DNA of 64,000 nt from Sphagnum compactum (Eukaryota), in NCBI GenBank assembly GCA_965153455.1, contig OZ234494.1, forward strand, positions 5,084,001 to 5,148,000. Direction: 5' to 3'. The position numbers were made by a program, and so were the translations under genes. Below the pieces are notes generated by a model. The model ran no database searches. It was given only the letters and a program-made list of their open reading frames with translations, and was not told the origin of the DNA. Of this stretch, positions 5,395 through 63,900 are shown piece by piece (the stretch's first letter is position 1; every line of letters begins with the position of its first letter).

Positions 5395-5945
5395 AAATAT
5401 CCTAGCTACCTAGACTAATTTAGTTACCTAACTACTTAGGTAAAATGATAAGTTGGTAAATATCAGGTGTTTCTCCTAGCCTACTTACCCTGACCTACTA
5501 GGCCTATTTACCTAGCCAAGGTTATCCTACCTTACCTAATTTAAGCTAGCTCCTAAGGTATAAGTTTAAAGATTTGAACTTTTCACCTCCATGGTTAAAG
5601 ACTAGATTATCCTACCTACCTAGCCTAGGTTATCCTACCTACCTAGCTTAGGTTATCCCACTTTAAGTAAATTACATGTGTATGTAAATGGCCACCTAAC
5701 CCAAGTAGATGCATACCTACCTACCTACCATTTGATGTCTACTTACATACCTACCTAGGTAAATGGCCTACTTAACCTAGGTAGATGGCCTAGTTATTTA
5801 CCTACCTACCTAGATAAATGGCCTACCTACTTATAGTTTGTACCTCCCTACATACCTATCTACATACACACTTGCCCACCTACCTACTTAAGTACATGAC
5901 TTACCATAGGTAGATGGTTTATTTATTTAGGTAAAAAATTAATAG
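5395..5945. repeat. Low-complexity CCTA/CCTAG-rich degenerate repeat (also at about 6630-6770)
   Basis: Numerous CCTACCTA and CCTAGGT units. Confidence 0.65.
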
Positions 5946-7169
5946 GTGCCTATTGTAGCTTACCCTAATTAGGTGTATATGCAAATTAGGGTGGACCACT
6001 ATTTCCATAACACCCCAATTTATTTTGCACCCTTATGGATTACACTATATCCCAAGTCAAATGTTTTTTGAAATTTATGAAAAGGGACTTAGATATATGA
6101 TTCTTATGTAACTAGTTGAGTGCAATCTTTTAATTATTTGAAAATTATTTTTTACACCAAACATGGGGGACTTTTGTGCATGCATGACCTCCATCATAAC
6201 AATACATAAAGAACTTGTAAATGGATTCATTGTGATCATAGTTTGTAACGATGAGTCCATTTATTAGTCCTCAATAATCATAAATGTTATAATCAATTCA
6301 AAAATGTACTTTTAAAACCACTTCAAGATCCATTGAAACTTTGGGGGGACTTTTAAACACGCTATAATTGAAGGAAAAATTACAAAGTCCTTCAAACATG
6401 AATTTTGTGAAATTTTAATATATTTTTCCACAAACATTGTATCTTCAAATATATATTGAAGAGAGTTACTAATAATAATCTTTTTTGAAAAAAATTATTT
6501 TTTTAAGCCTCAAACATCAAGATTCAACAATGTCATAACATTGTCACAATCAAATACACTCCAAAAACATGTTTTCAGGGAAAAAAATTGTGCCACTTTT
6601 GGTCCATTTTAGTTTGCACATCCCTATCTTAACCTACTAGGGCTACTTAACCAGCCTAGCCTCCTAGCCTACCAAAGCCTACCTAACATAACCTATTTCA
6701 TCTACCTAGTCTAGTTGAGCCTATCTAGCCAATTTACTAGATGTAATAATAACATTTTCTAACCTCCCTATTAACCAATAATTGAAATTATACACTTTGA
6801 ATTGCAATAACAAATTAAATGTTATGTGTCATTTAATGATTTATGTATAATTGCAAATACATTTGCAAAAGCAACTTGGGTGTTAACCATCAATGAATGC
6901 CACCAATAATGAATGACATCAATTTTTCATCTAAACATATGGTAATCACAAATTGTAGTTGCATGTATGATTAAAATTTGGATTTCTCATAATGTAATCA
7001 TATATGTGATTACAAGCATTTGCGACTATGGTGACATGTAGGACTATTACAAGTGTATTTGCAAAATGAGTTGATTTGGACACTAATCACACACTAATCA
7101 TAAACATATAAGGTCAAAATGAACAAGATTTCTTCTAGTGGGAAGAGAGATTGGATCACATCTTGGGCA

Positions 7170-8330
7170 TGAGATGAGAGCTCAAAGGAAGCTCCAAAGC
7201 TTGTTTACAATTTGCTTGCATGGTCACCTTGAAAAAAACCAACTTCCATGTCAAACTTTTGCTCATTTAACAAGGTAGGTACTTTCAAGCCTTTATCACC
7301 AAACTCCTTTTCAAAACAATTTTGTGTTTTCTGCAAAGCTAAATGGGCAAAGCATTAGTGTTCAACTAATACTAAGGATATATGATTGTATCTTTTTTAG
7401 CAAAAGGGTTTCAAAGGGACAATAGTCTTTAATCTCAAACAAACACATTGGCTTGTTCAATTTCATTTGGACCCATTGGTCAAGTTGTTAGTTGTGCCAT
7501 CACCAACCAACCTTTTCAAATTCAACAAAATTAGTATGCACTTGAAGACATCCACAAGGTAAAGCACGAATGCTAACCCAAAAGATTGATTATTGATCAT
7601 CGTCACCTCATCATACTTAATAAAAAGGTACCTTGCTACATGAACTACAACTTTAGTTGTGACGAGCACCATGTGATGTAAATATTTTATAATCTCCCAT
7701 CCAACATTATATCAATCAATTGTTTTTTTGGGGTGTTCTTCACCTTCAAGAATTTAAACAACAATTTAATGGTCTCAACATTAGTGAAAGGACAACCTTG
7801 TTGCAAAAGCCAAAAAACATAAACAAATTGCAAAAATTTCTTTTTATTCTCTAACTACATCCCCCATAATTACCAAGTCTACCATTGCATTTTTTCCCCT
7901 ATTGGAGAAGAGACATTCATTTTTTGCATGTTGTGATTTTGTAAACATATAATATTACCCCATGTTGTAATTATGTCTTGCAACCTTGCATTTGCATTTC
8001 CCAACATGTTTTTGGAGGTTGTTGAATTTGTGAACCAAAAGTTTTTCTCTATCTTCAATCTACATGCAATCACAACATTTCACCATATGCACCTACCCAT
8101 TAGAATCAACCACAACTTCCACCCATGGAAGCATTGTTGCCTAAACATCTTGAAACATTTAGTTTATTTCCTATTCCCTTAACCTTCTTTTTCTTCTTTA
8201 GTGGGTAAAATTTCGATTTCAATGATGGGTCTGAATTCAAAATGTGAGTTGCAACACAACAAACATAAATAGTTACAACAACTTTGACTATAGTGCAAAC
8301 ACATTTGTTGTAAACATGACAAATGAAGGA
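7170..8330 (-). pseudogene. hAT transposase N-terminal/core remnant, probably the same element as 4810-5060
   Basis: DEVTMINNQS...ILILLNLKRLVGDGTTNNLT (catalytic-D region) and CRLKIEKNFW...ARLQDII are heavily degraded. Confidence 0.5.
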
Positions 8331-9193
8331 CCTTGGTTCAATGAAACAACATCACAATGTTCTAGACCCTTGCCAAATGAATAAATAAATAAATAAAATT
8401 TAAAGCCATTCGAGAGTTACAAAGGTGCCATGGTGCATACACTCAAGAATTGATGAGGAACAAATAAGCAAAAGAGCTTGATACTTACAAAGCAAACAAC
8501 AAAGCTATTGAGATTTATGAAATGTAAAGACTAGGAAGTTATCAATGAGCTTTCCATGCATGTAAATGTTGCAAATATACAAAAACTTGAAAGGGCATCA
8601 TGATTGCATGAAATTATCTTGACAATTGCTTTTCCATTGCATTGATAGTTGCATGGAAATGCACCAAGAAATATACCTCAAGTTGCAAGAAATATCATCA
8701 AAACAAAGTCCATAGCCACAAAGTTTTACAAAAAAATGAACCTCAAAAACACCATATCAAAGTCCATAGCCACAAAGTTCTAAAAAAAAAACAAACCTCA
8801 AAAAATCATATCTTTAGAATTCAAGAAACTCTAAGCTCTAACATGTCCTTTGGTGGCAACTTAAAATTTTAAAAGCTCATGAATGAGGCAACAACCTTAA
8901 GTCACAACTTTGATATGCATAAAGGTGATGGAATTTTTTAGTTGAAGGAAAAACTAGTTAGTTTGTTGTGAGCTTTATTGAAAGGCAATGATGGTGTTAT
9001 GAGATACATCAAATGCCCCTAATAGCAAGTAACTTCTTTGTCACATCCATTTTTCAACTAACCCTAAAGCATCACTCTAAGATATTGACAAAATCATCAC
9101 TCCTTTTAAATGTTTAAACAAGGTAGGTCACATCCCCTTGTGAAAGGTGGCAAACAAGCGAAATTTGGCTAGTAATAAAAACAATGGTTAGGA

Positions 9194-9490
9194 GAGTGTT
9201 TTTTTTCCAATTTTGTGAGATAGGTGGGCTGATGATCATTTACAAGAGGGCCTAGGCAAAGTTGGCTACAAGTCAAAGCCCTAAGTCAAAAAAAAATTAG
9301 GAATCCCACTATGTTCAAGCCATAAGCTAGAGGCCAATGTCTAAATATGGGGACTTGAGGACTTTCTACCTCGAAATATGATGACTTTGGTCAAAATTAT
9401 CCCAAAAAATCCTTTGAGAGCCTTCCTAGCCCCTTTATTTTGTCACCAAGTGGTGAAATTTCACCCAAAAAGAAAAAAAAAACACCCGAG
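9194..9490 (+). repeat. Dispersed MITE-like repeat, family A
   Basis: TTTTGTGAGATAGGTGGGCTGATGATCAT...GCAAAGTTGGCTAC...GTGGTGAAATTTCACC. Confidence 0.5.
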
Positions 9491-37907: not shown

Positions 37908-39245
37908 CTATCTGAGTAGGGATGATGAGTACTGTTGCTTACTGTGACCCCTGAGTCTAGAGCAAGCAGGCTCGGTGGTGCTGTAGAACCCTAGTTTGAG
38001 CTCAAGCTCTAATATTGCACTGTTTTGGTCATGGGTTCTAACGGTTTCATGATCAGTCATGTGATGTTGATCAACAAGTTGAGGCAAAGACCCAGGTGCG
38101 CAGCTAGCTGCTGTTGGTGTGTCAATAATATTAAGAAACAGTTCTCGATCAGCAGCAGCTAGTCTTGGCGGCGCTCCTCTAATTTCTTCACCCAATTCTG
38201 CATGTGACGCGATCAGCTTTCTAGTGGAAGGCTGTAGCTGCAAACCTGTACCGTTCGGGCTGGAACCCTGAGTTTTCATTTGCGTCGACAGTGATTGGAT
38301 CGTCAGGACCTGCAGGTCTGATCTTGCACACAAGCTTCTGTAACAGCTGATGATGTCGGCACGCGGACGTCGTCCTGCATGGAATAAAAGGCGGTCGAGA
38401 TTTGAGTTGGAGCTTGGAGTTGATGGCGATAGCGAATAATTAGAGCTGCTAGTGCAGGATAGCTGTGGGATGGGGAAATTAGTTCGTGCCTTGGATCCAC
38501 GCAGCCTCCTGGCGGCAGCGTCGTAAGCTCGAGCAGCGTCCACGGCTGTGTCAAACGTGCCCAGCCAGTGCCTGCATCTTCCGATGCGGTCGCGGATCTC
38601 GGCCGACCACCTTCCCCACGGTCGCTTCCTCACACCTCTATACACTTGCAGTCCGCTTGTCCGGAGGCCTGGCGTGCCATCGCCATCCACGCTGCTAGTC
38701 ATGACTGATTTCTTGCTTATACAACTGCTTTCAGGGGCTGCGAAGGCCCTGAGACTCTCCAGATAGGGGAAGAATGTATCTGAGCTGCTGATCCCGTGAC
38801 CACCACCTTCTTGAGGGGCGGCAATACATGAGACTCCCAGATCATTGGAACTCGATGTAAAGGTCGAGCACTTTGATTCAGGCGGTGGAGGTTCCAAGTT
38901 GGGGAGGGATTTGATTGTCATCATCTCATGTGACGACTGATCAGCCGCACCTGACATTGTCTGCCAAGACGAATCCTGGTCGAGAAGCATTGTGGGAAGC
39001 GAAGATGTACAAGAAAGGGCTTCCAGGGTCCGCGTGCTGCGTGACTCCTGAACTTGATCACCCTGGCCTCCAAACAGCGCACGCTGCCCAACAACTGCAG
39101 CGATTCCATCCAAGTCCTGCAGACCATCTGTGGCGTTGCCGCTTGTTTCTTGGCAGCTGTTGATCATGTGAACCACGGGACTGATTAGCTGCAGGTCGCT
39201 CTCTGTGGTTCGCAGCAGTTGAGGGTGCTCTACAAATCCGTGCAT
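37908..39245 (-). CDS. AP2/ERF transcription factor, ERF084/STEMIN-like (group VIII), with C-terminal EAR motif; about 445 aa from the first in-frame ATG
   Basis: AP2 domain [56 protein letters not shown] at about 38475-38645, N-terminal [14 protein letters not shown] motif and C-terminal LELELKLG (LxLxL). The frame stays open upstream to about 39422, so the true start is uncertain. Confidence 0.88.
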
Positions 39246-42200
39246 GGAGAGCTGCTGTCCCCCTGAAGCTGAAGAAGGGTCGTTCCAGCTAGGTTGCAGC
39301 AACTCATGGGAAGAAGGAGGGCTGTACACGGCAACTGCCGACGAACAAATGGCACAAAAGGAAGAATATAGGTTTGGTGCCACGCAACGCGCGCAAGCTC
39401 CCCTGCACTCAAGTCGCTCGAGCTAGTCATCACAAGCTGCGCCCAAGAACACTTCTCTCTACTCGCAGACACTTCCGACATGGTGTCGTGCGGCCATTTC
39501 CACTTCGAAGACAAGCTGGAGGTGCTGAGGAGCATGTCATGCAGCGCCATGACTAGAGTGCTAGTGAGTAGAGTCTCTAGGGAGCTCAGAACTGACCAAA
39601 GTTTCTGTACAAACTTGCAAACTACTGAAATTGCTCATGCTGTTACGTCAATCGTCATGCCATGACGACCCAGTTAGCTGCCAAAGATCAGCTGCCAGCT
39701 ACAAACCAAAGCTGCTGGCGATCGAATATCGATTGAATGTGGAGTAACTTCAGGAGACAGATCAGATGAGTACCACAGTGCCTGCTGCTGCATTAGTCAA
39801 AGAAGTCTTACCAAAGGTCGAGAGTGGCTAGCTAGTTGCGTCTGGAAACAACTGGGCCCAACTCATGTTCTGGAAAGGCTTCATCATGACTCGAAAAAAC
39901 AGGGAACTAATTAGATTGATCTGCAAATTATTAGTTGGAAAAATTGGGGAAGATTGTATTAAACTACTGAGCAGAAAAGACTACAAGTGTCGTCTGTCTG
40001 TACGAGCAGCTGGTCGGTCCCCAGACTGATATATAGTAGCTGCAGTCAAGAAGAACCAGTACCAGCTCCAAGAGGTCTCGAGAACAGTAAGAAGACGAGT
40101 GAAAGTGCAGAGTGGAGATGGAACGGAGTGGTAGCTGCCGTCACTTCCGCGAGGCCACCAACTACATTGCAGGCGAGGACACCGTTCCGGACCTTCTTCT
40201 TCCTCAGGAGGACTGAAGAACAAGAGAGGCCTAATTGCGACTGTGTCTCGCGCCCTGTTATTTAGAACTGGTCTGATTTAAGACAAGGTCTAGTTTCATT
40301 TCATTACACATAACTAAACCAAAAAAGAAAGAAAGAGTGTAAATTTTAGTTTATTCAACTAGTGCACATACTCCAAGATTAATATTATATAATATTAACT
40401 ATGTACAACCAATCAAATACAATAACTTGTCTAAAATGTAAGGTCACGTATATATATATTTTTTCAAAAAATTATATTTATATATTCAAAAAACTTGAAT
40501 CATTTAAAAATGCCCTACTAGGTATGCCCTACTAAGTGATGCACCCAATGTAATGGGCAAGGCCGAGGGTACTCCATTACATCTTGGATGGCAGATTAAA
40601 TGAGTTTTTTTTGTAAATAACTTTCAATAGACATTTTGGTAGGCAATGGGACCAGGCAGCCAGAGTCACATGCCAACCAGTGTTGGGAACATTTTGGAAT
40701 TTTTTTCTGGTGTAAATTGAACTAATTTTTCAGATCGCAACTTTTTCCAGAAAAAAGTCCCATGCCACTTCTTAGGGCCGAAACACACAAAATATTTTTG
40801 TTAATTATATTGTGAATTTGTCCAAAGGGTCTGAGTCCAAAGAAGAGGCCATTTCCTGAAAATTCTGGATCCATCAGAAGACTTTGCTTCAAAAACAACT
40901 CCAAATGTTTATAGCCAGACCCAAATCCAGGTCAAAATCTGGCTATATTTCCTCACTTCAAAAACATTGGTCAAATACATTTCAGCCAGATTTCTTCATG
41001 CTTAATTATGAGGAGAAGATGTTCATTTCAGAAGAAGCTGAATTCATTTATGCAACCTGAAAAAGCTTCAGAAAAATCTAAGAATTTCTTTTGTAAAGGA
41101 GGTGATGTCAAGGTGATTGACAGAATGTAGCAAGTCAAATGTTCCCAGCTTGAATGATGGGGTTTTGTTCTAGGAAAACTCAAAAAGAGGACAGGATGAA
41201 TGCCCTCCTTGTGTAGGCTAATGCTTCTGTTGCTTAAGTGCCAGTCAAACTTCCCTTTTACTTGCCCTCTCATGAATCATCACATCACCCCGCCTTTGTC
41301 CTGTCTTGGCTATTCACCAACAACCCAACGCCCAGTAATAATAGTACCCTAGACAAAACAACAAATCAGCAAGCGTGGCAGAGTCTGTTAATCTAACTTG
41401 CACTTCCTCTGAATTCAGCCTTCTCTTCCCCCAGTAGCAGGCAATGGGGAGAGTGCTGCATGGGTATTAGAAATGGCACCAAATAACAGGTGGTTATATG
41501 CCGATTCTTTTGAGATGAATAGCTTTGGTTCACAAAACATCAAAATAACTGGGTGTAGTAACGGTTCTCTAAAAGTGTAAGAACTGATTCTGATATATAG
41601 TCACAGTTGTCAAAACATCCAAGAACTTGTCCACTAACCTTCTGTGAAATTGTCAGTTCTTTGTGGGTTCTTTCATGAAAACCATCAGTTCTTTCTTTGA
41701 GGGTATAACATATTTGAAAATATGGGAACCACAGGTTATTTCTAAAAATCAAATAACCAGTCAACACTTGTAACAACCAACAACATACAACATTCTAGCA
41801 GTCGATCACTCACGGAGTGCACAATTTCATTAGGAGCAGTGTCTTTTTGTTCTGGTGAACTGGTGCAAAATTTCACCCTTCGTTGGGGGGCTGCACCCAG
41901 CACAAGATGGGTCTCCAGCTCCAGCTCCAATTCACAGTTATGCTCTGAAATGAGGTTGAGGTTGCCAAGTTGCATCCAATCACAAAGGAAGTTTCACCGT
42001 AAACAGTCATAGTTAGTGCGGGTTCCTAGTTCCATTTAACCCGGGTTAGCAGTCTTCAAATTGCAACTAATTCAGGTTATTAATTAGACTCCACAACTAA
42101 CCATGGTGTATATATTGACATGGGAACGTGGGTACCCAATAGAACACATGGCAATGATGATTGTGTGATGATTACACAGAATGTCGGGGAGAGAGGCCCA

Positions 42201-52029: not shown

Positions 52030-54579
52030 CATGGTAGATCCTGTGGATTCTCCGTTCTCAAAGTGTTGTCGGGCATCCAATGGAGAGCCAACAGTCAACT
52101 TTACCCTTATGTTCAAAGTGTTGTCGGGCATCCAATGGAAAGCCAATAATCAACTTTACCCTTATGCCTAGTTGTGTTCCAACTTCCATCCATCCGCCCA
52201 TCATTCCCATCCCTCCTAGTTTATTTCAACCAGTCCCTTCATCCTCTATTGGTCCGTCGGCCCTATTTTCGCCTTGCTCACCACACCCAATAGGAGTTTC
52301 TCCAATATCCATTGTACGGTCCTTTCCTCCACGACCTTACATTCCTTGTCCTTTTTGCGATCGTCTATTCAATGCAAGGGGGGCTTAACATGGAACCAAC
52401 TTTCATGCACCAGTCATGGGTAGTCATTTGTTTCAAGGGCAAAGTTACCCCCAACTTTACCATGTTCTCCTCCCATTTCAACATGGACATGGATTGCATA
52501 TATAGACATCATTGATGTTTTCCATTTGGATTTACTTCATCCTCATTCATACCATCATATTCCATATGCTGTTCAAGTTGATTTTCAACAAGCTTTGCAT
52601 ATCCCTTTATTTCGATTAGTATTCGATCCTTTTGATATTATAGTTTGGCATGTTTTATTTTATTCCTTTTTTGGTGTTTGTCCTTCCTCCCAAAAGGTGG
52701 TGAAAAAGGCCACCAAAAAACTCATGTTCACTTGTGTCAAAACATAGATGGTGATTAGGATACATTACATGAGGAGCACACGATTAAAACACTCGTTTTA
52801 GCTTTTCGTAGATGTTTAGAATCGACTACTTGAATCTTATCCCACCTCCATCAGCATGATAACACTGTGCACAGCCCTTTGTTCATGTAAGGGAGTACAT
52901 TTAAGCAATATGTGCACTAGTTCTGAGCACATTTGGAACCCCATTTAACAAGACTATAAGAATCCTTCGTCTTCTCCATCCACTTGCTAAGATTGATCTC
53001 CCCCCTTTTGTTGATGATTTCCATCCTAAAACAAAGGTTACTTTAAATTGGGAGCCATTTATTTTTGTTTTGGCTTGTTCACCATATCTTTTTTCTAGTG
53101 GCCCCTCGGGTATGGTGTATGAGTTTTCACAAAACTATTTTGTCCTAGATGATTTTACGAGTGGCATTGACCTCTTTTTCAAGATATGTGGGCACATTGA
53201 TCAAGGTCATGTTCCATCGTCAGTATTGCATTTTTTTTGTGCATCTCGATTCCTAACATTGGAGAAGTAGCTTGGAGGCATACGTCCCATCGTGATTGGT
53301 GAAGTGACCTATTACCTAATTGCCCATACACTTGCTGTTGAGTTTAAGGAAACTTTTGCGAAGCATTTTAATCATCATCAATTTGGTGGAGTGATTCGTG
53401 GTGGGTGTGAGATACTAGTTCATCGCATCCGAATGATGTTAGATTTGCACCCAAATTGGGCGATGCAGGTGGATGTCCGTAACGCCTTCAATTCGATGTC
53501 ACAGTCCACCATTTTTTAAGAGTTACGATCTTCACCAGGTTCTCTCGATCAACTTTTCCCATTTGTTTGATGATTCTATGCACATGCATCCCCACTATAT
53601 TTTTTTCAAATTTCCTGACATGGGGATCTCATAGTCATTTTGTCGAAATAAAGTACATGATAGGGGGACCCATTGGGAGGAACATTGTTTACTATGGCTC
53701 ACATTCGCACTCTTTGCCTTAGAGTAGCAACCACCCTTACTTGTGTTTTCCCTTCATTGGCAAATGATACACATATAGTAGGTTTCACATCAAATGTGGT
53801 TCTTGTTTTTTTACGATTACAACAAGAGTTTTCAACATTAAAACTTTTAATGCAACCAACAAAGTGTGTAGTTTGGTCTCCACAAAGGTTAGACCACTTT
53901 ATATCATTTTTCCTTGGCTTTCTTACTCTCAATTCGGGTTTTTATATTTTGGGCACATCGGTGGCATCTAGGTCATTCATTGAGTCGTTTGTGGCTAAGG
54001 CTTTTCATGAAAATCTTGGGATGATATTTAGTCTCCCTATGTTTGCAAATCCTCAAGCAGCTTTTGCAATGTTTTCATTATGTTATGCCCAACGCCTTGG
54101 CTATTTGTTTCGTACAATGTCTCCATCTCTAGGTATTTTACAACATCACACTAAATTTGATACTCATACCATAACTACATTGGAAAAGTTACTTGGTGCG
54201 GGATCTTTTGGTGGCTCTATCGGTCACTTAACACATTGTTAGGTCACTTTTCCTACTTTTTCGGATGGGCTTAGCCTCCCTTTTGTAATTCAGATTGTTA
54301 CCCCTACATTCTTGGGATGTTGGGCAATGATCGCTTTTACGTTTGTCATTCATTTCCAGCAGGATGATCACCTTATTCTTCTAGCTGCAATAACACATGT
54401 TGAGACTAACACTTCCCCATTCCATATGGCACTATGAAATACATGAGCCTTGTTACCCCATGTTGTTTATTCTTAGGTCCCACCTTTTGAGAGCCTAATG
54501 CTTCAATCTTATCCCTCGTTGTAAGCATTTTTGGCGAATCGCCTACATGAATAGGAATTTGCTTCACTTCTAGTAAATG
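52030..54579 (+). mobile_element. Decayed CRE-clade (RLE-type) non-LTR retrotransposon, 5' part (zinc finger plus reverse transcriptase)
   Basis: Broken ORF with CPFCDRLFNARGGL, SGPSGMVYEF, LTLEK*LGGIRPIVIGE, HQFGGVIRGGCEILVHRIR, VDVRNAFNSM, GDPLGGTLF and LANDT (ADD-like). These are RT motifs characteristic of CRE/SLACS-type elements. The 5' boundary is approximate. Confidence 0.8.
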
Positions 54580-54846
54580 TGTTATGGACCGACTACAAAC
54601 AAGTGGAGAATTACAAGACAAGACAAGCTTTATTGATCCATCAACTAGTGTTGATCTGCTGAAGGGTTGTTCCCCAGACTTTTTCCTTTTATAACCCTGA
54701 GCCATACTAGTCCCAAAATATCCTAGGCCATGATATTGCCAAAAGTATCCGAAAATATCCTAGGCCATGATATTGCAAAAAGTATCCCAAAATATCCTAG
54801 GACATGACATTGCCAAAAGTATCCCAAAATATCCTAGGCCATGACA
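54580..54846 (-). repeat. 3' LTR of the chromovirus
   Basis: Direct repeat of 60589-60855, preceded on the minus strand by a polypurine tract at 54847-54859. Confidence 0.95.
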
Positions 54847-57800
54847 TTATCCTCTCCTCAAGCGACATCTTCCAGATGGAGCCGGTTTGTTAGGATACCG
54901 TTGGTGAAACCGATTAATTAAGTCTTGGGCATGAATTAGGTTTCCAGCAGGCTCCCAAGTAGCTTCAGAAGGAGGATAACCTCGCCAAAAGACAAGGTAC
55001 AGGAGCTTTCCACGAATCTAATTGGAGTCCAAGACCTCCTGAACTTCAAACTCTTCTTGGCCTTCAATTTCAACTGGAGCTGGGGGTTCTTGATGACGTT
55101 CTGGGATCGGGTTTTCATGATAAGGCTCAAGCAGGGAGACATGGAAAACATTATGGATTTTGAACTGGGGTGGAAGCTCCAACTGGCAAGCCACTAGACC
55201 AACCAATTTGGCGATTTTGAAAGGTCCGAGGCGCTTGTAATCCAACTTGGCACATGGGCGAGTGGTAGCAATGTTCTTTCTGAGAAGCTAGACCTTGTCT
55301 CCAACCTTGAAGTTTGGATGGTCCTTGCGTCGGCGGTCTGCTTGCTTCTTTTGCCACTCTTGTGTTAGCTTGAGTTCTGCCATAAGGTTCTGTTGAACTT
55401 GTCCAAGCCTCGTGGCCCTTTCTTCAGCCGAGCGATTTATGGAGTCTCCAGGAATTTCAAGGCTGAACCTGGGATGAAAACCATAATTGGAAAAGAATGG
55501 ACTGATCCCGGTCGATGCATGTGTTGTGTTATTATAAGCAAACTCTGTTTGAGATAGTAGGTCCAGCCAATCGTCCTGTTGGTAGTTCACAATGCAACGA
55601 AGGTATTACTCGAGTGTCTGGTTTGTCCGTTCGGTTTGTCCATCCGTCTCAGGGTGGAAAGTTGAAGATAGCCGAATATCAACTCCAAGAAGTTCGAATA
55701 GACGATGCCAGAACTTGGATGCAAATTGAGGACCTCTATCGGACACAATTTCCTCGGGGAGTCCATGCAGTCGGACGATCCCGTCCAGAATTAACTGAGT
55801 TGTCTCTTCTGCCGTGATTGACTTGGAACAAGGGGTGAAATGGGCCATTTTGGTGTGTCGATCGACCACAACCAGTATTGAATTCTTGGTTCTGACAGTA
55901 GGGAGGTCTGTGATGAAGTCCATTGCAATAGATCCCCAAGGTCGGCTAGGAATCGACAGAGGCTGTAGGAGTCCAAACGGGCGATGCCTGGGAGCCTTGG
56001 ATCGAACACATGTATCACAAGACTTGACATACTCCCGTAGCATCTTGTTCATTTTGGGCCACCAGTAAGTCCTTGACACTAGTTCGTGAGTCCGTGCCAT
56101 TCCAAAGTGACCCGCCAGGGTGTTGTCGTGGCATTCTCTCAGGATTTTTAGGCGTACAGGTCCTTCGGGTACATAAATCAGGTTATTTCGAAGGAGAAGT
56201 CCGTCTTGTTGCTCAAACTGATCCAAGTCATCACGATTTGGGTTCCTTGGTCGTTCTTGGAGTTCCTTCTTGATGTTGGTAGCCCAAGTGTCTTCCTCAG
56301 TTGCCATCTTGATGTCCCTGACAAGGTATGAGTCTGGGAGGGTGCTGATTGTTGCTGCAACTCGAAATTGCTCGAGGTTGAGTAAAGTCTGGTTCTGCTG
56401 GCCGTAGGACTCATCCCCCACTCGAAGTTCATATTCTGAACGACGAGATAGCGCGTCAGCTTTCCCTTGCTGGGTGCCGGGTTGATACAGAATCTCAAAG
56501 TCGAAATCAGCTAGGAAGATAGACCAGCGTGCCTGGCGACGATTTAAGGTCCGAGTAGTTGTGAAATAAAGGAGATTCTTGTGATCTGTCAGAACTTGGA
56601 CTCGATGTTGAGCTCTGGCAAGATACGGTTTCCACTGCTCGAATGCCGTGATGATTGCCAGGAGTTCCTTATCGTAGACCTGGTAGTTGATTTCGGCACT
56701 GGTTAACTTCCGTGAATAGAAAACAATTGGATGCAGCAACCCATCTATTCCAAATTAAGATAGAATAGCTCCCAAGGCAAAATCTGAAACGTCCGTTTCC
56801 ACAATGAATGGCTTGGCAGGATCGGGATGTATCAGGATGGGTGCAGAGGTGAATGCCATCTTGAGAGTATCAAAAGCAGCCTGGGCCGTTGGATTCCACG
56901 AAAAGGGCTTGTCTTTGCAAGTCAGGGTTATTAACGGTGTTGTGATCTTGGAGTAGCCTTTGATAAACCGACGATAGAAGTTGGCAAACCCTAGGAAGCG
57001 TTGAACGTCCTTGACCGAGGATGGAGTAGCCCAACACTGGATGGTCTCGACCTTTGACTTGTCCATGAAAATGCCATCTGGAGAGATCACGTAGCCGAGG
57101 AACGCCACTGAAAATTTGTCGAATTCACATTTTTCCAACTTGGCGTATAAGCCATGCTCCCGGAGCGTCGCAAACACCAATCGTACATGTTTGTCGTGGG
57201 TTTCCTGGTCCTTGGAAAAGATTAAAATGTCATCCAAATAGACCACGACAAATTTGTCCATGTAATCCCGGAAGATATCATTCATCAGATGCTGAAAGAC
57301 TGCGGGTGCATTGGTGAGGCCGAAGGGCATGACCATGTATTCGAAGTGGCCGCAGCGTGTGCGGAAAGTTGTCTTCCATTCATCACCGGGGCGAATCCTA
57401 AGTAAGTTGTAGGCTTCACGGAGGTCAAGCTTGGTGAAGATCTTCCCGGTACGTAGTTGATCTAGGAGACCTGAAATCAAGGGCAAGGGATATCGATTCT
57501 TTTTGGTTATCTTGTTGAATCCACGATAGTCCACACAGAGTCGAAAGGAGCCATCCTTCTTCTTGACAAACAAAATTGGGGCGCCAGCTGGAGACTTGGA
57601 ATGCTGAATGAACCCCTTGGCAAGATTTTCAGTAAGGTAATCACGCAGGGCTTGGAGTTCCGGTTCTGATAGGCCATAGATAGGACCAAAGGGTGGTGAG
57701 TGTCCTTCTTCTAGATCAATCGGGCAGTCATATGGACTATGGGCGGGGAGCTGATCAGCATTAATCTTTTCAAAAACATCAACAAAGTCCTTGTACTTCT

Positions 57801-58603
57801 CGGGAAGTTTGACAGGTGTTGGTTCTGATTGGGGGTTTGTGGTGTTGGCTGGGTTGACATGGATGGCGAAGACTTGAAGATTCTTAGCAGCTCGATAGAA
57901 AGGGACAGCTCTATCAACGAAGATCTGGACAGGGTTGGTTTTCTGGGCAGGATTCTTGACAAGATTCTTGACAGGACAAGGTTTAGTTCTGAAACCGGGG
58001 GTTTTTGACTGCAGGACTTGACATAACAGACTTGATAAAACTGGAATTGGTTCCGACCCTCTTTGGGTTCTCGACCACAGGGTTCTTGGTAGGACTGGAC
58101 AAAGTGTTTTTCTGAGCGTGGGGTTCTTGAGAGGTGCACCGTTGTGCGCTGAAGGTGAGGGTTCTAGATCGCCAATCAATGATAGGGTTGTGTGCTTCTA
58201 GCCAAGGCAGACCAAGGATGATGGGATGGTGAGGGGTGGAGATGATGTTGAGAACAATCTTCTCCGTGTGCTTGCCGATACAGAGTTCTAGAGGGGTTGT
58301 CTCGTGTGTGATTGCACCAGAAGCAATGGTTCTCCCATCAATAACCTCTACCGGAACAGGGGTTGACTTCTTGACCACAGGGATGTTGTGTTGGACGACA
58401 AATGTTTGGTCGATGAAAGAAGAGGTGGCGCCGGAGTCCACCAAAGCTGACACTTGTGGTATGTCTTCTGGAATACGAATGATGTCCACATACTAAGTGA
58501 AATTGGGACTGGGACCAACAGCGGAACAGGAGCCTTTGCAAAGGTGGTGTTGGGTGAGATCCAGTCGCACGGCTCCTACTGTGACTAGATGTTCTTGTTT
58601 TCC
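54847..58603 (-). pseudogene. pol: Chromovirus pol (PR-RT-RH-IN-chromodomain), disrupted
   Basis: ORF pieces 57983-58489 (protease), 56755-58179 (RT), 55606-56739 (RNase H/integrase), 55288-55590 and 55018-55245 (GPF motif; EEFEVQEVLDS...YLVFWRGYPPSEATWEP chromodomain) are separated by in-frame stops and one frameshift. Confidence 0.92.
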
Positions 58604-59601
58604 AACTCCCGGGGAGTTTCCACAGCTTATACTTGAAGTTTGACAAGCTTTTGAGGGCACTGACGAGCTATATGCCCTGGGTTGCCACAGTTAGACATAG
58701 ATTGTTTGTCTTTCGGTGAAGTTTCTCGGCTTCTGTCAAAGATTTAAACTTAGCTGTGTCGATCTTCATCGGAGCAGGTCCAAAAGAGGCAGGTCGGGCA
58801 ACTGGTGTTGTTTGGGGAACTAACTCATGAAGCCTATAAATTTGTGATGTTATACTATGCATTTTTATGTAGATGCATGGAGTTAGCAGGCCGACTGTTC
58901 CAAAGCTGGGCGTTGGAGGTGACTTTCTTTTCCTGGCGACGCTCGAACAGACGATTATCGCACCGAATTGCCTGGGTGATGGCTTCACTGAAGGAAGAAG
59001 GGTCTGCGAGTGTCAACAAAAGATCTTGAACATCATCACAAAGCCCACAACGAAACTGATCAATCAAGGCAGCTTCTCCCCAATTGACGTCGCAGGCAAG
59101 CTGCCTGAATTTTGAGGCGTAGACGATGGCCGAACGTGTCCCTTGCTGGAGGCGACGCAACTTGTTGACTGAAGTCCTGGCCTTGTCATTGTCCCCAAAT
59201 ACTGCTTCAAATTCCGCCATAAAGGCGTTGAAATCTTGTAGGAGAGGGGATGATGTTTCCAAGATGGGAGCAAACCATGCTGCAGCTGTCCCAGTGAGTA
59301 GGGTTCCAACGAATCCTACACGAGTGGTGTCATCAAAATAACGTCGGGGGTGTAGTTGCATGATCAGGCGTACCTGGCTGACAAAGCCTCGAAATTTGAG
59401 GCGCGTTCCATCAAACTTGTCTGGCAGACTGATCTTGGGCTCTGAGGCGGCCATTGCAAGAGCAGGAAGTACTGGGGCAGGAGGTGGTGGCTAATTCTGT
59501 AGGCGGGTCACCGAGTCTCTGAGCATGGCATTTTCTTGTTGAAGGTGTTGAAGGGCGACGAGGATTTGAGTGAGATCGATGTTTGATTCTGAGTTGTCCA
59601 T
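58576..59601 (-). pseudogene. gag: Chromovirus gag (retrotransposon gag domain plus CCHC knuckle), disrupted
   Basis: ATG at 59601 gives MDNSESNIDLTQILVALQHLQQENAMLRDSVTRLQN*PPP...EPKISLPDKFDGTRLKFRGF...LRRLQQGTRS...PAPMKID...CGNPGHIARQC. It carries internal stops, a frameshifting AT-rich insert and a 1-nt deletion. Confidence 0.9.
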
Positions 59602-59640
59602 GGTGGTAGTTCTCACACTTTTGCGCTTTCAATCTTCAAA

Positions 59641-60413
59641 CTTGAAACTTCAGATGCTTGGATCTCTCTCAATACAAATCCAAATGACATGAAATTTCTC
59701 TCACACATATATTCCTATATGATCTATAAGATCACAAAGTTATAGACCCAAAAAAGCTTAAACAAAGGAGATATGACCAAAAAACCAGATCTGCACTTGA
59801 AACTTCAGATGCTTGGATCTCTCTCAATACAAATCCAAATGACATGAAATTTCTCTCACACATATATTCCTATATGATCTATAAGATCACAAAGTTATAG
59901 ACCCAAAAAAGCTTAAACAAAGGAGATATGACCAAAAAACCAGATCTGCACTTGAAACTTCAGATGCTTGGATCTCTCTCAATACAAATCCAAATGACAT
60001 GAAATTTCTCTCACACATATATTCCTATATGATCTATAAGATCACAAAGTTATAGACCCAAAAAAGCTTAAACAAAGGAGATATGACCAAAAAACCAGAT
60101 CTGCACTTGAAACTTCAGATGCTTGGATCTCTCTCAATACAAGTCCAAATGACATGAAATTTCTTTCACACATATATTCCTATATGATCTATAAGATCAC
60201 AAAGTTACAGACCCAAAAAAGCTTAAACAAAGGAGATATGACCAAAAAACCAGATTTTTTCTTGAAACTTCAGATGCTTGGATCTCTCTCAATACAAGTC
60301 CAAATGACATGAAATTTCTCTCACACATATATTCCTATACGATCTATAAGATCACAAAGTTACAGACCCAAAAAAGTTTAAACAAAGGAGATATGACCAA
60401 AAAACCAGATCTG
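59641..60413. repeat. Tandem array, 5 x 155 bp, in the chromovirus 5' leader
   Basis: Units beginning CTTGAAACTTCAGATGCTTGG start at 59641, 59796, 59951, 60106 and 60261. Confidence 0.97.
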
Positions 60414-60588
60414 GCACAGAGTTTTCAAAAGCTCTTAACTCTCACAAAACATATCCTTTTCTTTTGAAACTTTGAGAGTAGAAGCGTCCTATAGTCTTCT
60501 ATAACCTTTCGAAGTTTCACTCCAAAATACCTCTAGCTACTTACTGAAACAACAAAACAAACAAACAAGAAGAAGAAGCAGATCAAAC

Positions 60589-60855
60589 TGTTATGGACCG
60601 ACTACAAACAAGTGGAGAATTACAAGACAAAACAAGCTTTATTGATCCATCAACTGGTGTTGATCTGCTGAAGGGTTGTTCCCCAGACTATCTCCTTTTA
60701 TAACCTTGAGCCATACTAGTCCCAAAATATCCTAGGCCATGATATTGCCAAAAGTATCCCAAAATATCCTAGGCCATGATATTGCAAAAAGTATCCCAAA
60801 ATATCCTAGGACATGACATTGCCAAAAGTATCCCAAAATATCCTAGGCCATGACA
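60589..60855 (-). repeat. 5' LTR of the chromovirus (U3 has about 3.6 copies of a 37-bp repeat; TATAAAA at 60702-60696; AATAAA signal)
   Basis: Direct repeat of 54580-54846. The unit CCCAAAATATCCTAGGCCATGATATTGCCAAAAGTAT is repeated in tandem. Confidence 0.95.
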
Positions 60856-61845
60856 AAATGTTCTTTCAAATATCATACGAACACATTTTTGTTCATGTGC
60901 GGATCCAGGGGCAGGCATTTGGTTATTAGTTCGTCTTACCACACTTGCATTTTGTTTATCTTTAGTCCACTTCTTTACAGCACTATGTCCATGTTTTGAC
61001 TTATCACATCCTACCGTTGCCCATTTTTCATGATGTCAATGTGATCATATCACTGACGATCTAAGTACCCATTTGTTTTGATGCCCCTGCAAGAATGAAT
61101 GTATAGTAGCCCACGATACACTTTGGGATATTATCATAGCTATTAATTTGGAAAGTGGAACACATGTTTAAAAGGAGGTCTCCCACCTTTTCCCTCGCCA
61201 CACCTAATGACGAGTGGATATCATTATCACCAGAGACAGCTTCTAGACCTTGGTGGATGTTGTCATTGTTGACGTGATTCATACAAATATGGTGTAACAA
61301 ACATCGACGATGACAACACATGCAATGATTATGGTTGCTCGGGAGAAGAGATGATCGTACGCTGAACGAGCACCAAACGATGACTTCATTTTCCTTGTTA
61401 TTGAGACATATGAGTGTTTTCATTCTTGTTTTGATTCATTTTTTATCACTTGTGCATGGACCACTATCGAACGTCATCAACAATCTTCTTTAATCCCCGT
61501 GATGTTTTTTTCTTTACAATCAACAACACGTGTTCATAGCCCTGTAGTGTGCGCAAGCCATAATGATTATTTAGCAAGGTGCTACACTTGGTCAAGCTTC
61601 CTCATCCCTTCCACACATCATAACTAGTGCACCTCTATCACTAGTCGGTTTGTGGCAAATGACAACTCTTTCGTCTTAAATCTTTTTTGTTATTGTTGAT
61701 TGTCATTTCGTGGCCATGAGTAGGTCTTTACATGATTTTGGTTGATTGTTTGCTTTTGTTTTTTTCTTTGGGTTGTGTCCTATTGTGTTCTATTTTGCCT
61801 TGTACTTTTGATGGATGGGTTCCCATCCTTGATTTTTATTTATAG
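60856..61845 (+). mobile_element. Decayed CRE-clade non-LTR retrotransposon, 3' part (zinc knuckle plus restriction-like endonuclease)
   Basis: The frame continues across the removed chromovirus (LLVNVLSNIIRTHFCSCADPGAGIWLL). It then reads CQCDHITDDLSTHLF*CPC...AHD and KEVSHLF...RVDIIITRD...TLVDVVIVD, followed by a T-rich 3' region. The 3' boundary is approximate. Confidence 0.75.
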
Positions 61846-62904: not shown

Positions 62905-63900
62905 TAAAGCCCTAGGTCCACGGCATTTATGGAATTCCAAAAAGGCCATGCATGTGAGGCAGTTTTTTCTCTTTGGCCTAGTGGAAAATCAGAAAAGATT
63001 CCCTGGCCTTGCATCCCTAGACATTACAACCTCTCAGTGTCTTGTCCTGAGCCTTGGACCATTTCATCTTAGGCCCATAGCTACCTAAGGTTATTGGGAA
63101 TACATGTTAAAAACGATTAAATAAAATTAATCAGTGTTTTTAACATCAGCATATATTACATTCAAAAAGGCCATCCATGAAGGCATGATTTATTATAAAT
63201 TTGGCTTAGGCTTGGGGTAAGCACCAGAATATTCTTTTGATTTGAAGTCCTTGGGCATGTCCTAAATAGGGCCTCAGGTCATCATGTACAAGATCCCAAG
63301 TAGTCAAAAGTCATTTTGTGTGAGCCCCAAGCCACCATGTCCTAGACCCAAGGCTGCCTGGGATTGGGACATAGCAACCTAGGCACTAGAACATGGTGGC
63401 TTGGGGCTCACACAAAATGACCCTTGGCTACTTGGGGTCTTGGACGTGAGGACCTGGGACCCTACTTAGAACATGTCCAAGGACTCCAAACTGAGAAAAT
63501 ATTTCGGTGCCTACCCCAAGCCTAAGTCAAATGCATAATAAATCATGTCTTCATGGATGACCTTTTTGGATGTAACATATGCTGATGTAAAAAATACTGA
63601 TTAATTTTATACACTCGTTTTCAACAACATGTGTTCCCAATAATCCTGGGTAGCTATGGGCCCAAGATGAAATGGCCCAGGGCTCAGGACAAAACACTGA
63701 AAGGTTTGTAATGTCCCAGGGCTCAGGACAAAACACTGCAAGGATTGTAATGTCCCAGGTCAGGGAATCTTTTGTGATTTTCCCCCAGGCCAGGCCCAAG
63801 CCAAAACTCTCATTTTTTACCTTCCTCACATGCATTCATGCATGCGTGGTTTCTTTGGAATTCCGCAGGCATTACCAAAATAAGGGCGCACAAGGCTTTA
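62905..63900. mobile_element. About 1-kb fold-back (long inverted repeat) element, MITE/FB-like
   Basis: The arm at about 62905-63360 is the reverse complement of about 63372-63900, for example GTCATTTTGTGTGAGCCCCAAGCCACCATGT versus ACATGGTGGCTTGGGGCTCACACAAAATGAC. The ends read TAAAGCC...GGCTTTA. Confidence 0.85.

Follow-up and report, generated by a model that had tools for sequence, protein, structure and literature searches.

A putative self-priming Tcn1-type chromovirus in Sphagnum compactum, with inverted-U3 junctions in some sister copies

The element and its surroundings

The window analysed here is a stretch of 64,000 nt of Sphagnum compactum DNA (contig OZ234494.1). Its minus strand carries, from 60855 to 54580, a decayed copy of a Ty3/gypsy chromovirus of 6,276 nt; all features of the element given below lie on this strand. 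A 5-nt target-site duplication (TSD), CATTT, flanks the element on both sides (60856-60860 on the left, 54575-54579 on the right), and this TSD, together with a second copy, sets the limits of the two 267-nt LTRs, which differ at 6 of 267 sites. The 5' LTR (60589-60855, TG...CA) ends with ...CCATAACA at 60589. Most of its U3 is made up of 3.6 copies of a 37-nt tandem repeat (60720-60853), an array whose length varies among copies of the family (LTRs of about 197-304 nt). A putative TATA box, TATAAAA, is located at 60696-60702, and AATAAA, a candidate poly(A) signal by sequence, at 60638-60643 within R.

The untranslated leader contains 5 copies of a 155-nt tandem repeat (59640-60413). It is followed by gag (58600-59601, the lower limit being approximate; PF03732, PF19259), whose ATG lies at 59601, and by an aspartic protease (57983-58492; PF08284), which in the window copy is in a different frame from RT. 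The RT, RNase H, and integrase domains (55288-57750; PF00078, PF17917, PF17921, and PF00665) contain in-frame stops, as does, once, the chromodomain (54898-55050). Searched with X in place of its stop codon, the chromodomain matches PF00385 over positions 1-53 of 53 (E 2.8e-14), and read by eye against the aromatic cage positions described for group I chromodomains (PMC3350952), it has F, W, and Y at the three positions, suggesting the group I type. A polypurine tract, recognised by sequence (54847-54859), directly precedes the 3' LTR (54580-54846). The Pfam domain order is gag-PR-RT-RH-INT with a C-terminal chromodomain. The window copy, as it reads, is unable to encode its own enzymes: gag and the stretch between protease and RT contain stops and frameshifts, and the RNase H, integrase, and chromodomain regions contain stops. 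Several other family copies have an open pol-sized frame of 1,299 aa. The family can be called abundant in the genome because the exact 15-mer of LTR end plus PBS occurs 108 times.

Other features are scattered through the window. Beside the 3' end of the element are broken frames on the plus strand (52905-54242) with motifs that, as we take them, recall a non-LTR RT; the one frame tested there had no Pfam match. An imperfect palindrome of about 820 nt (62974-63792), with arms 85-89% complementary and a 16-nt centre, is possibly a MITE or fold-back element. A plant host transcription factor gene is represented by a 504-aa open frame (37908-39422, minus strand) that contains an AP2 domain (PF00847).

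Pairing between the LTR and the primer-binding site

Directly after the 5' LTR, the minus strand reads GT (60588-60587) and then TTGATCTGCT (60586-60577), the predicted primer-binding site (PBS); there is no TGG after the 5' LTR of the window element. These 10 nt are the exact reverse complement of AGCAGATCAA within the LTR (60669-60660), and the TATA box starts at 60702, 33 nt before 60669. The first-pass annotation had reported the lack of a TGG-type site, the 10-nt complement, and the 33-nt spacing, and each proved correct. If the RNA starts at 60669, the segment 60660-60669 would be its first 10 nt and the predicted self-primer. Shuffling the bases of the LTR gave a perfect complement of at least 10 nt, 0-5 nt past the LTR, in 14 of 20,000 trials; with random 30-mers taken from the window, a draw that includes both LTRs themselves, the figure was 128 of 20,000. 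The duplex stays at 10 bp, with no extension even when G-U pairs are allowed, and a loop of 73 nt separates its arms. The REXdb rule for self-priming, as given in PMC6317226, asks for at least 10 bp of LTR complement starting 0-5 bp past the LTR, and the window element falls under it.

The predicted start is a C/A step (60670/60669), which fits the plant YR rule. In Arabidopsis, TATAAA peaks at -35, and 77% of starts obey this rule, the YR step marking +1 (PMC1832190). Contigs assembled from 4 of 24 RNA-library runs contain pieces of the family without usable starts; one contig has its end at 60666, another two run from U3 across the predicted start into the leader (read-through or DNA), and neither the end nor the crossing counts as evidence on the RNA start. 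Two runs labelled moss metagenome also yield contigs across the LTR and PBS; these show 12 differences over 244 nt in one case and 16 over 397 nt in the other. In predicted folds, the first 10 nt of the window RNA pair with the PBS with a probability of 0.75-1.0 per base, and the inner primer:PBS pairs come near probability 1 in 9 of 9 folded RNAs, except at a mismatch in one of them (L166). The whole-fold z is only -1 to -2.2.

Copies and relatives of the element were drawn from two sources. From its own genome came 40 regions, of which only those with RT, an LTR pair, and clear ends were kept; protein searches of this genome with divergent RTs returned almost only the window family. Among 78 metagenome loci, 8 had an LTR pair, clean ends, and a TSD (L063, L105, L110, L115, L125, L126, L136, and L137), L079 and L134 were added by hand, and the remaining 68 were left out. 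Of the 30 closest copies, 24 have 10 perfect pairs, 2 have one G-U, and 4 have one mismatch. The conservation among these near copies shows little alone, because variation in the arms is as high as in their flanks (3 changes in the 10 positions of each arm vs a mean of 0.23 per position); the true test comes from other families. Some changes recur: one G-to-A change in the PBS is found in 5 copies (L015, L019, L020, L171, and L177), and one C-to-T change in the primer arm is found in 3 (L017, L021, and L141). Both occur in CAG/CTG contexts and would fit methylation-driven decay after insertion.

In a sister subfamily (L140, L175) with a longer LTR and a loop of 134 nt vs the 73 nt of the window copy, one A-U pair is replaced by G-C on both sides; L141, of the same subfamily, has this double change and one G-U. 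More distant elements carry pairs of other sequence. L144, whose RT is 74% identical to that of the window element, has a wholly different 11-bp perfect pair with a TATA box 32 nt upstream; L165 (RT 62%) has 12 bp with one G-U and TATA at 31 nt; in L166, where no TATA box was found, the pair is 11 bp with one mismatch. Among metagenome loci, L105 has 12 perfect bp with TATA at 33 nt, L126 has 11 bp with one G-U and TATA at 35 nt, and L079 has 13 perfect bp. Across the elements the loop ranges from 73 to 317 nt, the PBS arm is always 0-2 nt from the LTR, and the TATA distance is 31-35 nt in the families where a TATA box is seen. A full complement is absent in L163 (5 bp) and in L134 and L063 (7 bp, old LTRs), and L136 and L137 have 8 bp only. 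Loose duplex scoring, allowing G-U and one mismatch, was rejected as a test: non-cognate LTR/PBS pairs reach 10-10.5. The loosely scored L110, L125, L136, and L137 carry little weight because non-cognate pairs score equally. The compensatory changes between R start and PBS that the first-pass annotation had suggested looking for are present, both as the sister A-U to G-C change and as the different complementary pairs of other families. Across these elements, the primer:PBS pairing is kept through sequence change, including full turnover in the more distant families.

Lineage, primer, and competing explanations

Two RT trees place the window element with fungal and vertebrate elements, apart from seed-plant and algal chromoviruses, with a split of 99% in a tree of 56 rows and 100% in one of 31 rows. 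Both are quick IQ-TREE trees with SH-aLRT support only and a midpoint root, and 2 short rows were dropped from the 56-row tree. The window RT is 53-56% identical to two fungal proteins, 52-63% to vertebrate proteins, and 46-52% to seed-plant proteins. An assignment to the fungal-like Tcn1 lineage had been proposed from the start. Its first half stands, namely that the element is fungal-like and apart from the seed-plant chromoviruses; the rows compared are labelled by host organism (fungal, vertebrate, plant), not by clade, and none is named Tcn1 or Tf1, and the name Tcn1 itself rests on matching features. The element is thus best described as of the Tf1/sushi group (plant Tcn1-type), 'Tcn1' being applied by likeness of features and not by placement with a reference.

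The same genome contains a second chromovirus family (RT about 52%) that serves as a control. In 7 of 9 loci checked, its LTR end reads CA + 2 nt + TGG, a motif that presumably matches tRNA-Met. The three of its loci that were placed in the tree fall on the seed-plant/algal side; a split with 100% SH-aLRT support separates them from the window element and from the fungal and vertebrate elements. This TGG family (L145-L150, L158, L164) is very young, with LTR pairs 98-100% alike over the part compared and single frames of about 1,500 aa, and many of its copies lie on contigs C17, C19, and C20.

Together, the sister double change, the pairs of other families at a similar TATA distance, the RT tree, and the TGG control family support self-priming, as first proposed for this locus. 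The reading we consider highly probable is that this chromovirus, an abundant family of the Tf1/sushi group (plant Tcn1-type) of which the window holds a decayed copy, uses its own RNA as the primer for minus-strand DNA synthesis. RNA polymerase II would start at or next to 60669, and the first 10 nt of the RNA would fold back over the 73-nt loop onto the PBS. By analogy with Tf1, the RNase H of the element would cut the RNA right after these 10 bases, and RT would extend the freed 3' end through GT, U5, and R. In Tf1 itself, the stretch paired with the PBS is the first 11 bases, and the RNase H cut falls between bases 11 and 12 (PMC7175516).

The most serious competitor grants that the pairing is real and selected, and assigns it to RNA folding, packaging, or strand transfer, with the RNA starting elsewhere and priming taking another route. 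It can draw on the RNA-library contigs that cross the predicted start, the start itself being a prediction, and on Novikova et al. (2010), who found no signal of self-priming in SM-Tcn1 of Selaginella (PMC2864245). It can also point to the accessory duplexes known from Tf1 (the 'pretzel'; bioRxiv 2022.12.06.519325), which are not above chance here. The test for these duplexes considered uninterrupted helices only, with a start no more than 4 nt from the PBS; by it, none of the 9 elements had a third duplex that exceeded the shuffles. The inner duplex is weak: in the window copy, a possible stem arm in R (60644-60654), predicted to pair with the U5 end (60599-60590), is equalled in 48 of 300 shuffles, not above chance, and the best case is 12 of 300 (L166). 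However, the duplex ends at an A after a pyrimidine, 32-35 nt from the TATA box, in the window family, the sister, L144, L105, and L126, and the other arm lies 0-2 nt past the LTR, where a primer must bind and where no other primer site is present. This alternative is improbable.

Rather less probable still is that a host tRNA half or other small RNA primes here and that the LTR complement is a side effect. Half-tRNA primers do exist in plant copia lineages (PMC6317226), and the tRNAs compared were 42 distinct sequences from 30 of 63 Rfam loci, an incomplete set that is partly organellar or bacterial. Within this set, the best match of a tRNA 3' end to the PBS is 2 nt and the best internal match 7 nt, so that the search for host tRNA complementarity proposed in the first-pass annotation gave nothing longer, and there is no TGG. 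Moreover, related families have wholly different PBSs, each of them complementary to the LTR of the element that carries it, a pattern not expected from a fixed host primer. One small contig (L031, L035; G000:C563), which looks like a bacterial contig within the assembly, has 13 tRNA genes packed closely together, among them one whose anticodon is TCA. Finally, chance, for which the mere 10 bp and the similar duplexes that loose scoring gives to unrelated LTR/PBS pairs might be cited, appears largely refuted by the cross-family pairs and can practically be dismissed, given 14 of 20,000 shuffles, the sister double change, and, in at least 4 more families, complementary pairs of other sequence that keep the same register.

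Self-priming by the element's own RNA is known from Tf1 of yeast (PMC7175516, PMC4600332, bioRxiv 2022.12.06.519325; see also PMC3601003 and PMC5445492). Like Tf1/Tf2 of Schizosaccharomyces pombe and the Tf1/sushi group, the window element has the Ty3/gypsy domain order with a chromodomain, and the first bases of its predicted RNA complement a PBS right after the LTR. It differs from Tf1 in pairing over 10 bp and not 11, in showing no evident three-duplex 'pretzel', and in having a plant as host, and it is known here from sequence alone. Tekay, Reina, CRM, Galadriel, and Chlamyvir share with it the Ty3/gypsy type, the chromodomain, and the 5-bp TSD, but they have a TGG-type tRNA PBS, which the window element lacks. 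The closest likeness is to the plant Tcn1 clade of REXdb, with a mean length of 6,357 nt, a range of 5,466-9,444, and a 5-bp TSD (PMC6317226). Members of this clade mostly have gag and pol in overlapping or separate frames, and their hosts are mosses or club-mosses. The window element agrees with this clade in its chromodomain, 5-bp TSD, length of 6,276 nt within the range, lack of a tRNA PBS, position under the self-priming rule, and RT on the fungal/vertebrate side.

Of 1,500 plant Tcn1 elements, 83% were predicted by Neumann et al. (2019) to be self-priming, a trait that, as their survey states it, no other plant chromovirus clade has (PMC6317226). Self-priming of plant Tcn1 elements is thus already predicted in print, and the first-pass annotation overrated its novelty; the window family or relatives of it may be among the elements of the REXdb survey. 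A specialist would find it unsurprising, as one more family in a clade with predicted self-priming. What is added is the cross-family covariation, the TGG-type control within the same genome, and sharp predictions, namely a start at 60669 and a cut after base 10. The covariation and the inverted-U3 junctions described below are not reported in the accessible part of PMC6317226.

Inverted-U3 junctions at the primer/PBS arms

In one sister copy, L170, the PBS runs not into the leader but into inverted LTR nt 196-8, which then join the protease region. A search for this junction pattern found 8 places in 7 elements, or 8 of 108 exact LTR-PBS junctions (about 7%). Six of the places (both ends of L169, and L170, L191, L192, and L193) have the order LTR-GT-PBS-inverted U3; in the other two (L194, L195), the order in element sense is U3-first 10 nt-AC-inverted U5 end, and L143, of the sister subfamily, has a 6-nt version of this second type. 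In all of them (L169, L170, L191, L192, L196+L193, L194, L195, and L143), the strand switch is located exactly at the primer/PBS arms. The TSD 5-mer of L194, CATTT, is the same as that of the window copy at a different locus, probably by chance.

One end of L169 (G000:C2:20800100-20809499) reads PPT-3' LTR-GT-PBS-inverted U3, continuing to the first base of the LTR. There the inverted U3 directly abuts AGCAG, the same 5-mer that precedes the 5' LTR as TSD. Therefore, this end predates integration, and integrase used an inverted U3 end; the inverted-U3 copy probably arose during reverse transcription, to judge by this arrangement. One variant is common to the 5' LTR of L169 and its arm and absent from the 3' LTR and its arm, a pattern that would fit later conversion or a two-template origin. 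In L193, the TSD GGTAG bounds an inverted whole LTR, and the fold-back arm is internal. The junctions of L170, L191, and L192, which have normal ends, could be later genomic template switches.

The exact register of the 8 junctions argues that the primer and PBS arms have paired in vivo, as DNA. As sequence evidence, they speak to arm pairing in DNA and not to the identity of the RNA primer, because any primer at the PBS would be copied to the same letters. In Tf1, about half of the cDNAs are described as keeping a single-stranded PBS copy at the 3' end (PMC11042837). Such a 3' PBS copy on cDNA could pair with the R start of its own strand and from there copy U3. We favour, with some reserve, the idea that self-priming leaves fossil errors: a plus strand with a copied, unremoved self-primer would fold onto the R start and copy U3 backwards, after which some products would re-enter the element with a deletion and some would integrate via a second, inverted U3 end, the roughly 7% of exact junctions (8 of 108) being such products.

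No account of PBS-to-inverted-U3 junctions was found in the literature searched, in which coverage of subscription papers is incomplete; inverted-U3 junctions placed exactly at the primer/PBS pairing in some sister copies thus appear to be the new observation here. If the proposed origin is true, primer pairing and primer retention in a plant self-priming element can be read from genome sequence alone, and the integrase of such an element accepts two U3 ends. The junctions would then be a source of palindromes and deletions specific to self-priming elements, and they could serve to follow primer pairing and retention from sequence alone in any self-priming lineage (Tcn1, TAR copia, sushi).
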